In this document: positions 1 through 59,273 of the stretch, piece by piece | Position numbering within the stretch: position 1 is the first letter of the stretch | Layout of the letters: each line of letters starts with the position of its first letter | NCBI GenBank assembly: GCA_001662655.1 | Contig: KV460228.1 | Strand: one strand, 5' to 3' | From: Pseudogymnoascus verrucosus | Taxonomy: Eukaryota | Length of the DNA stretch: 64,000 bases | The notes under the pieces: model-generated | Told to the model about the DNA's origin: nothing | The model's database searches: none | Seen by the model: the letters and a program-made list of their open reading frames with translations, nothing else | Program-made: the position numbers and the translations under genes

Positions 1-447
1 CGCGTATTGAACAATTGTACAGGACTGTCGCGACCTCCTGTATCCGACTGGTATATCTGCCACGGACCCTCGACAGCACTGACCTTTCTTGGGATGCAGC
101 GACGGCTAACATATGGACGTAAGTACAAACCAAAATCTCAACGCCTCTAAATTCCATCGTAGTCCTAACGCGATCATAGCTTCATCGAAGGCAATCTGTT
201 TGTCATTTGCGGTTCTATACCTACAATGCATCGCTTCTTCACACATGTGTTCCCTCGCATATTCCACAAAAGGGCCTCAAAACCCAACGATGAATCGTTG
301 TCTGAGCACACGCAGGACACTCAACAACATACCCAGAACTCTCAGCAATATATCCGGGATTCTCGACTATACACCCAGGACTCTCANNNNNNNNNNNNNN
401 NNNNNNNNNNNNNNNNNNNNNNNNNNNNNNNNCGAAAACTAAGTTAG
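1..447 (+). CDS. 3' part of a PTH11-like (fungal rhodopsin-domain) membrane protein; partial, and the 3' end is uncertain because of an N gap
   Basis: Exon 23-118 reads TVATSCIRLVYLPRTLDSTDLSWDAATANIW. After a GTAAGT...CTAAC...TAG intron it continues FIEGNLFVICGSIPTMHRFF, the typical last two helices of this family. Confidence 0.75.
306..386 (+). repeat. Degenerate ~21-bp tandem repeat running into an assembly gap
   Basis: Units acaacatacccagaactctca / gcaatatatccgggattctcg / actatacacccaggactctca; they encode 7-aa repeats (QHTQNSQ-like) in the PTH11-like tail. Confidence 0.7.
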
Positions 448-1136
448 TATGAGCAGTTTCTAGAAGTCATCGACCTGCATCCCTTTCAGGTAGCGCAGGA
501 CAGCGCACACTACCCCAGGCCTCCTCTACGATAGTCATGCCAGATGGGGATATGAAGCGAGAGAGCTATCCTCCAGCCAAAGCCGTACACCTGCTTTCGG
601 AGCAATATTAACTAGAAATTATTTGGATGTCGAGCGCAGCAATCAGGGGCTTGATATTGTATTTGACGGTAATATTGAGCAAACTGGGTGCCTACATACA
701 TATGATCCAACCTGCATTGGTGTATGACTTCCTCCAAAAGTCCTTATCAGAGGACCACACAGCGCCGGGCCTCAGAAAGGGCGAGGCAATGGCTGTAGTG
801 AGTTCCAAAGACGAGTTGGAGACCCACCCCGCTTCCCCGCCAAACAGGTAGGCAGGCAACCCCCCTCGAAATATCCTTTATATAACCACCCCCCAACGCG
901 GTCCCAGATTCACTCCATTCCATACTATCCCATATCCATAATCCGTCTATATATGCCTTTGTGTTTTCCCCTCCCATAAATAATGAGTGACTTCAACGAA
1001 AAAACAAAAAAAACAGCCCCACGATAAAATAAAATTAATAAAATTGGATACACACCGCACTCCACCCACCCAACCGGCAGCCGTAAAGAACCAGAAAACA
1101 AATTTGTTGTAAAGAGAGAGACGAGACGAGAGGCGA

Positions 1137-57232: not shown

Positions 57233-58140
57233 TCTCTCTCCAATTGCTTCAAAAATGTATCTGGAAATACGAAAAAATGACACGAGATGGCAGGATACTG
57301 CCGGAGAGGTGATTTCGGTGATGGTGTTGATGGGAGAATGTGACAGAAGTGGAAGGGATGTTGGAATCTGGGGGGGATTTTATTCACTCATGGGCTGGAG
57401 CTGACCACCGACGGCCCGCTGGTAAGGTGGTACGCTGGTTTACCCTCCAGAAGCTCGGACCTGCATAGCTCCACTTTGTTGGTCAATGCGCAATGCGAGT
57501 CAACGCTTAGCTGCTTCAAGTTCGCGCTGGAGCGCGATGTAAGATCTTACATGTTGACTGTCGAGACTCGAGTTTCTGAGAGAAATTAAATGCGACGATG
57601 GCATTAGAGACATCGTTATTCGCAGGATCAAGACTTGTCCTGTTGTCATTGTCTCATACCTTGTATGCGAGTAGCTTGAGACAACACAACCCGGCAAGGG
57701 ACATGATCGACCCTCTCGTCCTGTCTTTTCGATACAACGAGAGAGAGCAAATGAGGTCAGGTACAGATCTCAGATGTAAGCTAAGCTATTGGTAAGGCTG
57801 AAGTGCGATGTACAGTAGTATTGGCTAGAACTTGGCTGATCCGTTCCAAATGAAGGCAATTGTCCTTACAGGCTACAACAGACAGCGGTCACAGTATGCA
57901 GGAAGTCATGTAAAGGTGTAAAAGTTTGGTAAAATATGTTCTTTGATTCTATTGACATTTTCGATAATATTTGAATCTTTGGATTGTTAGTGAAGGCCCT
58001 AACAATGGAGAAAAAAAGAGCTTACCATGTGGATGTGACGAGAAAATTTGATCGTTGTGAAATACCTGAAACACGTCGGTGTTAGCTATTTGTGCACATG
58101 GATGCAAAATATATGTTCTTTGAAAAGAATGACAGCAAAA

Positions 58141-58293
58141 GCATCTTTCAGGCTGTGAATTTACGTTAGCGTTGATCGTAAACTCAGGAAAGGTTGCATG
58201 ACATACCTCATTAAATCAGATTTTGTGTTGATGCGTTCAGTGACGGACCGAAGTCCGCCTCAAACAGTGTGAATAAGTATCATCATATGATGC
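58141..58293 (-). ncRNA. snR51: Box C/D snoRNA snR51 orthologue, interrupted by a 54-nt intron (58153-58206)
   Basis: Box C ATGATGA at 58286-58280. Guide TATTCACACTG plus D' TTGA is complementary to 25S CAGUGUGAAUA. UUCG hairpin. Guide CTGATTTAATGAG is complementary to 18S CUCAUUAAAUCAG. Box D CTGA at 58151-58148; terminal stem GCATC/GATGC. Confidence 0.88.
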
Positions 58294-58401
58294 AAGTGCT
58301 CGCCATGTGAAAAGTGAAGAGATCTGTGTATATGTACCTTGGACGAGTCAGCGAGAGTCCAAGTTTCGTTTGTGAAGCCAATTCGTATGAATGGTTTTGT
58401 A

Positions 58402-58526
58402 TCAGCTGACGAGTTCTCAACATGCAATCCATCACTGCTAGCTCCAAAGAGTTTGTACGCTCTTTGTGTTTCGTGAGTTCGCAATGTGGACACAGTCTGT
58501 CCGCCCGTTCGTTCAAAGTTCGTCAT
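58402..58526 (-). ncRNA. snR70: Box C/D snoRNA snR70 orthologue
   Basis: Box C variant ATGACGA; guide ACGGGCGG plus D' CAGA is complementary to 18S CCGCCCGU, and the +5 rule gives the yeast C1639 equivalent; C' GTGATGG; box D CTGA at 58405-58402. Confidence 0.82.
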
Positions 58527-58635
58527 GGAAAACGCAGGGCAAACGGCGAGGAGTAGTAGTAATGTACCTGAGGGAGAACTGTCAGCAAGAAGTCCCAAGA
58601 TATATGTAACAATAAATCCAATAAGTTTTAAGAGA

Positions 58636-58722
58636 GGTCAGACAAGGCTGAAACTGAAGACAGAATCTACATGATATATTCGGAATGAGGAATTCCTATA
58701 GTTGTCACTTGATCATCACACC
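58636..58722 (-). ncRNA. snR41: Box C/D snoRNA snR41 orthologue
   Basis: Box C GTGATGA at 58719-58713. Guide AGTTTCAGCCTTG plus box D CTGA is complementary to 18S CAAGGCUGAAACU (yeast G1126 equivalent). A second guide TAGGAATTCCTC precedes D' CCGA. Confidence 0.87.
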
Positions 58723-59273
58723 GGATGTGCGTTTTGCACTGCATAATAATAATAAAATATCTGAACGAACCTTTTGAATTTTTTTGTGGGGGTGGTGACA
58801 GTGCACAATTGAGCTGTTAAGCGTCTATAAATTGAAGTTAGCCAGCTGCACAGAACAGTAAATGGTAACTATCAATGGGACCAAGTTGAAAGCTCAGAGT
58901 TCTCCGTAGAGTGGTTAATCCCCATTATTGTGTAAGAGTTGGATTGTTCAGTTGATAGGTTCTCATCACAGAAGAACTGATCGCATAGAAGTATGGGAGT
59001 TATCTTACCATTGAGCAGCTGCCACCATGAGCTGTCGATGAACATCATCGAATATTCCGTTGACAACAAAAGCGAAGGAGAATTGAAAGCTCGGAAAAGT
59101 TTATGAAGTCTGCTAGCGCCGTCGGTTAGCGCAAGTCCCTTAGTCGGTACGCTAAGGGCCGCGTCATGTGACGTATCCCGGAAGGTGGCGGAATGTTGAC
59201 TCCCACCCTCCCCGAATTGCTTCTTGTTTGAACAACCTTACGTTTACCTTGGTGAACATAAGGTGTATCAATC

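Follow-up and report, generated by a model that had tools for sequence, protein, structure and literature searches.

How can a methylation-guide snoRNA be functional when its rRNA guide and its box D are separated in the DNA by 54 nt? This question is raised by positions 58141-58293 of the stretch of Pseudogymnoascus verrucosus DNA analysed here (64,000 nt of contig KV460228.1, hereafter the window), where the two elements of an snR51 homologue are found apart on the minus strand. A first-pass annotation had proposed that the snoRNA is interrupted by a spliceosomal intron of its own and is itself nested in a host intron, and all of its coordinates prove correct when re-read on the minus strand. 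We hold with high confidence that the locus is the snR51 of an snR41-snR70-snR51 host gene, split by an inner spliceosomal intron whose removal joins the guide to box D. Within this reading, we infer the order of events, the release from the lariat, the mature ends and the methylation at both target sites.

Judged by its sequence, the locus belongs to the snR51 family of box C/D snoRNAs (RF01214). Its 5′ segment (58207-58293, minus strand), delimited by the Rfam match and by motif coordinates, starts with the 5′ stem half GCATC (58293-58289) and box C, ATGATGA (58286-58280). A motif scan finds downstream the D′ guide TATTCACACTGT, followed by a D′-like TTGA (58263-58260), then a C′-like region around CTGA 58240-58237 together with an internal hairpin, and finally the 18S guide CTGATTTAATGAG (58219-58207). 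The 3′ segment (58137-58152, minus strand), found by the same scan and with a predicted 3′ end, contains the last guide base, C 58152, box D, CTGA (58151-58148), two A residues and the 3′ stem half GATGC (58145-58141). The unspliced DNA matches the family model at 58290-58204 with 48.1 bits, for a gathering score of 44, in agreement with the snR51 homology initially suggested. In this Rfam alignment, the sequence is identical to the family consensus at box C, at the D′ guide TATTCACACTGT and at the 18S guide CTGATTTAATGA. The alignment covers model positions 1-98 and deletes the four box-D columns, so that box D is absent from its usual place and is found 54 nt further on.

Joining both segments in silico gives a 103-nt RNA, in which two bases separate the guide from CUGA. 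The 15-nt reverse complement of what we take to be the 18S motif around A100 is absent from the unspliced form and present once in the spliced form, where it directly overlaps box D. With this motif, the predicted 18S A100 equivalent faces the fifth base upstream of box D in the spliced form. The proposal that joining guide and box D extends the 18S match and restores the guide-NN-CUGA register is thus borne out, the 15-nt complement to this motif being found in the spliced form only. The D′ guide TATTCACACTGT, identical in its letters to the family consensus and followed by TTGA, is predicted from that consensus to target the 25S U2729 equivalent. Yeast snR51 guides both 18S Am100, the target named in the first-pass annotation, and 25S U2729 (PMC3938493).

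The GCATC and GATGC halves flank box C and box D as in a terminal stem, and this box D adjoins the guide only once the 54 nt are removed. The stem has only 5 bp, and a second GCATC (58234-58230) is also able to pair with GATGC and is the one picked in the minimum free energy fold of the spliced RNA. Because of this competition, the terminal stem taken alone is weak evidence for the 3′ end.

To place the snoRNA in its transcription unit, contigs of four public runs (X4, X1, X20 and X19) were compared with positions 57700-59200, the shares of sampled words being only 0.21-0.32. X4 is recorded as RNA, X1 is RNA by guess only, and X20 is DNA-like; X4 and X1 come from different studies. The RNA evidence consists of assembled contigs of relatives that are 90-99% alike, in which the mature RNA, its ends and its abundance are not visible. 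X4 and X1 nevertheless behave as cDNA, because the same runs show other GT..AG joints at the host introns.

All features of the host gene are on the minus strand. Exon 1, bounded by sequence and joints, ends at 59009 and is followed by intron A (58825-59008; 184 nt, GTAAGA...TAG), which is removed by a joint 58824->59009 in both X4 and X1. This intron contains a box C/D-like RNA (58972-58890) with GTGATGA at 58969-58963, an internal CTGA and a terminal CTGA at 58897-58894, for which no Rfam match is found at E<=5; a U45-type snoRNA intron has been described as inserted upstream in the homologous cluster (Luo et al., 2013, PMC3596301). Exon 2 (58771-58824), bounded by contig joints, precedes intron I (58568-58770; 203 nt, GTTCGT...CAG), whose joint is seen in X1 (58565->58769, cut +2) and which contains an snR41-type snoRNA, Afu_455 (58723-58636; RF01860, 70.5 bits). 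Intron II (58338-58567; 230 nt, GTACAT...AAG) is removed together with intron I by another joint in X1 (58335->58769, cut +2). At the snR70 position, it contains a box C/D-like RNA (58530-58398) with ATGACGA at 58526-58520 and CTGA at 58405-58402, which is partly conserved in the related locus L074 presented below. The Rfam snR70 model does not match this RNA at E<=5, whereas it does find a yeast-like copy in another related locus, L023, with 187.8 bits. As an Rfam match is lacking, the snR70 label rests on position and on the cluster described by Luo et al. (2013).

Intron III (58066-58337; 272 nt, GTACAT...CAG) is the outer intron that holds snR51. It is defined by sequence and by an X4 contig that joins exon 2 to exon 3, whose raw joint, 58067->58780 with 6 letters between, fits exactly when read as 58065|58771. 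The location of the snoRNA inside host intron 58337-58066 is thus confirmed by both sequence and contig joints. Exon 3 (58026-58065) ends where the X4 and X1 contigs stop fitting, at 58026. A 50-nt intron with no snoRNA inside (58025-57976, GTAAGC...AAG) would follow, as suggested by loose contig ends that resume at about 57975.

Introns I, II and III follow one another directly, the exons between them having zero length at 58568/58567 (CAG|GTACAT) and 58338/58337 (AAG|GTACAT), so that each removal recreates a 5′ splice site for the following intron. In the contigs, each of the three acceptors is found joined to the donor of exon 2, after removal of I and of I+II in X1 and of I+II+III in X4. 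The host is a non-coding Pol II multi-snoRNA gene of the snR41-snR70-snR51 type, with its snR70 member assigned by position. The order of cluster III in Luo et al. (2013) is found here, with an snR41-type RNA in intron I, the RNA placed as snR70 in intron II and snR51 in intron III.

The 54 nt between guide and box D (58206-58153, minus strand) have the signals announced in the first-pass annotation, namely GTATGT (58206-58201), a branch-site-like GCTAAC (58170-58165) located 12 nt before the end and CAG (58155-58153), directly followed by CCTGA. With its GT...AG borders, its 5′ hexamer, a CTRAY near the 3′ end and its short length, this segment has the features of a fungal-type spliceosomal intron, and it corresponds to what Luo et al. 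(2013) named "intron B". Furthermore, its removal is observed in RNA-type contigs. A joint 58152->58207, found in both X4 and X1, skips exactly 58153-58206, with ends that read CT..AC on the plus strand and therefore GT..AG on the minus strand. The X4 contig is 452 nt long (58038-58152|58207-58543, depth 15.2) and differs from the window at one of 337 nt upstream of the joint; the X1 contig is 249 nt long (58044-58152|58207-58340, depth 108.4). Both cross the borders of the outer intron, showing that the inner intron is gone and the outer one is kept, and the X4 contig also keeps most of intron II. A contig of the DNA-like run X20, which extends across 58131-58288, has the 54 nt and differs from the window at six places, five of them inside the inner intron. 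X19 has no coverage at this site. None of the X4 and X1 contigs spans the 54 nt, and in none of the listed joints is the inner acceptor linked to the donor of the outer intron or of exon 2, contigs being unable to show absence. These results support the conclusion that the 54 nt are a spliceosomal intron, as initially proposed, which is removed at exactly 58207/58152.

Metagenome contigs were scanned for both snR51 guides located 30-60 nt apart, and at least 116 loci are listed. These loci are mutually related and were selected for exact guides, and they are therefore not independent events. In 88 of the 116 listed loci, a single base separates AATGA from a GT, and joining to an AG located 46-68 nt further on restores the two bases and CTGA. 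The chance of finding AG-N-CTGA was estimated at about 4% per locus, and the intron is at the same nucleotide in all 88 listed loci of this class, though the classification rule allowed four positions. Box D is contiguous with the guide in 20 of the 116, as CTCTGA, the yeast consensus (10 loci), GCCTGA (9) or GACTGA (1). The remaining 8 of the 116 are outside the rule, including four that end 16-40 nt past the guide but start with G+GT. The survey for the intron in orthologues that had been suggested from the window thus finds it at a single position. The intron pattern, which combines an RNA-type junction with recurrence at one position, is more than chance.

Two listed loci have particular features. 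The inner intron of L050 looks to be of the GC...AG type (G|GCAAGC...TAG|CCTGA), and in L091, which has a strong 7-bp terminal stem, splicing would yield CCGA instead of the box D CTGA. L110 and L113 were rejected as snR51 loci, being chance matches without a box C.

The intron-bearing loci listed, window included, give 73 unique sequences. In this set, the intron is 46-68 nt long, with a median of 53, and CTRAY is found within its last 35 nt in 71 of 73. The donor is GTATGT in 30 of the 73, and the acceptor is CAG in 32, TAG in 24 and AAG in 17. When the 9 nt that precede box C are compared with the 9 nt that follow the post-intron box D, the longest pairing run has a mean of 4.0 bp, against 3.57 +/- 0.09 bp with shuffled partners, and no shuffle out of 500 attains the mean of the real pairs. 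The same measure applied to the flank at the intron start gives a mean of 3.4, without covariation. The covariation signal between the 5′ and 3′ flanks is modest. The terminal stem that had been put forward as support for the 3′ end is thus present, with flanks that covary modestly, but by itself it argues only weakly.

One of the related loci, L074 (about 393-485, minus strand of the locus), aligns to the window with a gap of exactly 54 nt. It belongs to the orthologous host gene, with abutting introns, matches to Afu_455 and Afu_294, and a contiguous guide and box D. It is a natural intron-less allele, most simply explained by a precise intron loss with the outer intron kept. Copying back of a partly spliced RNA would be expected to give such a pattern, with the inner intron lost and the outer one kept. 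No mention of a precise loss of this kind is found in the accessible part of Luo et al. (2013). Afu_294, a SNORD55/39-like RNA, is found by Rfam just downstream of snR51 in 10 of the 20 related loci searched, and it corresponds to the U55-type snoRNA reported in the cluster of Luo et al. (2013). It has no Rfam match anywhere in the window, in contrast to that cluster, and it seems to have been lost or moved in the lineage of the window.

The two forms of the RNA were also compared by model scores, as the first-pass annotation had suggested. With an nhmmer profile built from 15 unique intron-less loci and leaving L074 out, the spliced form of the window reaches 56.0 bits with an alignment through box D, whereas the unspliced form reaches 47.4 bits with an alignment that stops before box D. 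The comparison thus turns out as expected for a spliced snoRNA, and adding L074 to the profile gives 61.9 and 52.7 bits, respectively. The Rfam search was run on 20 of the at least 116 loci, 10 intron-less and 10 intron-bearing. All 10 intron-less loci match snR51 at or above the gathering score (46.3-93.2 bits). Six of the 10 intron-bearing loci match at E<=1 (36.8-44.8 bits), one reaching the gathering score and five remaining below it, and the other four have no match. Annotation models thus under-score the intron-bearing copies, and the D guide is easily missed.

Two other explanations of the locus have to be weighed against a split snR51. The window could encode a short, exon-encoded snoRNA that ends at the CTGA 58219-58216, used as its box D, and that acts through the D′ guide only; an ordinary host intron located downstream would account for the 54 nt, and the post-intron CCTGA would be irrelevant. 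We consider this very unlikely, even though it has a precedent in Neurospora crassa, where CD6 has been listed as an exon-encoded RNA of 76 nt that has a D′ target, 26S Um2687, and no D guide (Liu et al., 2009, PMC2780460). Counted from the 5′ stem, 76 nt would end near 58218-58216 in the window, and the region does behave as an exon beside a spliced intron in the RNA contigs. A short RNA of this type would leave unexplained that the 18S guide downstream of the internal CTGA is identical to the yeast consensus, and that splicing restores the NN+CTGA register in 88 of the 88 loci classified as intron-bearing among those listed. Furthermore, it is the flank of the post-intron box D that covaries with the 5′ flank (mean 4.0) and not the intron start (3.4), no complement of GCATC is found after 58216, and guide and box D are contiguous in L074. 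CD6 is also an snR51 homologue of cluster III, and its annotation differs from the window in being exon-encoded instead of nested in introns. The CD6 annotation is most easily explained by an unrecognised intron, and the data fit the later nested-intron reading better.

Alternatively, the 54 nt could be a retained insertion that is not spliced here and disables the guide, the joined contigs coming from relatives whose DNA lacks the intron. An intron-less DNA allele does exist, as L074 shows, and both joint contigs come from relatives, the DNA-like run that was compared, X20, not being from the organisms of X1 and X4. Against this, the window itself has the consensus GTATGT, GCTAAC and CAG, X4 and X1 are cDNA-like with contigs near-identical to the window, the sole DNA-like contig compared across the site (X20) has the intron, and 88 of the 116 loci listed have their intron at the same position. 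We regard a disabled guide as still less probable than a short exon-encoded RNA.

Coming back to a split snR51, which we prefer, its maturation could proceed as follows. The inner intron interrupts the snoRNA one base before the end of the 18S guide, and the spliceosome would join ...AAUGAG to CCUGA, making the guide contiguous with box D and placing the fifth base upstream of box D opposite the 18S adenosine that corresponds to A100 of yeast. The D′ guide, whose predicted target is the 25S U2729 equivalent, lies entirely within the 5′ segment and would be independent of inner splicing. Introns I to III would be spliced 5′-to-3′ from one upstream exon, exon 2. In such a stepwise removal, intron III is the last to go, which would leave the inner intron time for earlier splicing. 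The inner intron, whose splice signals are good and for which the guide serves as the upstream "exon", would be removed before intron III. The snoRNP would then assemble on boxes C and D, and the RNA would be trimmed from the excised intron III to a mature form of about 95-103 nt. The late removal of intron III and the earlier removal of the inner intron both fit the contigs. The later steps, snoRNP assembly and trimming from intron III, would follow by analogy with the general biogenesis of intronic box C/D snoRNAs. As regards the earlier proposal that splicing order controls guide maturation, one part is thus in agreement with the data: contigs in which the inner intron is gone and the outer one kept fit an inner-first order.

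This arrangement is already known. The nested intron of snR51 was published in 2013 for Pezizomycotina by Luo et al. (PLoS One 8:e58547, PMC3596301), who describe a gained "intron B" that separates the antisense element of the intronic snR51 from its box D. This intron is reported in all Euascomycetes studied, including several Aspergillus species and Neurospora, with a single origin in their ancestor. Their cluster III, snR41-snR70-snR51, is without its two interior exons and is thus organised as intron-intron-intron. The window has the same intron B position, the same abutting introns I-II-III and an extra upstream snoRNA intron, and it shows no essential difference from the published description in the points that could be compared. 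Among 42 ESTs in the same study, intron I is removed in 18, I+II in 14 and all three in 10, suggesting either stepwise 5′-to-3′ splicing or the use of alternative acceptors; the same three products (I, I+II and I+II+III removed) are found in the contigs compared with the window. In the accessible part of the paper, intron B is treated as an intron gain, without discussion of guide function. As the arrangement has been in print since 2013, the window is one more instance of it and not a discovery. Our literature search on nested introns of snoRNAs in fungi found Luo et al. (2013) as the only relevant study, and it found no study on the functional consequence of the intron for Am100.

The snR51 of Saccharomyces cerevisiae (RF01214) and that of the window are alike in box C, in both guides and, after splicing, in the guide followed by two bases and CUGA. 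Yeast snR51 is released from a polycistronic transcript and not from an intron, and its gene, unlike that of the window, has no intron. The contiguous CTCTGA is likewise a feature of the 10 yeast-like loci among those listed, unlike the window. A spliceosomal intron inside a box C/D snoRNA gene, whose removal is needed for function, is found in the U3 genes of yeasts and other fungi, and work by Canzler et al. in 2017 reportedly dealt with these U3 introns. U3 genes are independent transcription units, and U3 is a processing snoRNA and not a methylation guide. Both U3 and the window RNA are thus box C/D snoRNAs with a spliceosomal intron, but only that of the window is nested in a host intron and splits a guide from box D. 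The locus also resembles the stwintrons of Pezizomycotina in being an intron within an intron; stwintrons are spliced consecutively, and in them the inner intron is inserted into a splice signal of the outer intron. At the present locus, about 130 nt separate the inner intron from the outer donor (58337) and about 87 nt separate it from the acceptor, away from the branch site and acceptor at 58086-58066, and the locus is therefore not classified as a stwintron.

What is added here is modest: the junction in RNA-type assemblies with the outer intron kept, and a survey in which 88 of the 116 loci listed have the intron. It also includes one orthologous, precise intron loss and the under-scoring by Rfam, in which 1 of 10 intron-bearing loci reaches the gathering score. 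In yeast, Am100 is substoichiometric and limited by the snR51 level (PMC3938493). The inner intron could conceivably act as a switch between the two guides, although we think this improbable. An unspliced RNA could still bring boxes C and D together and might assemble into a stable snoRNP with a working D′ guide for 25S and no D-guided methylation of 18S A100, and the efficiency of inner versus outer splicing would set the Am100 stoichiometry, independently of the D′ function. If this were true, the precise intron loss in L074 would represent a naturally always-on allele. A guide that would become functional only after the removal of an intron inside another intron is an unusual architecture, which would tie rRNA modification to splicing order.
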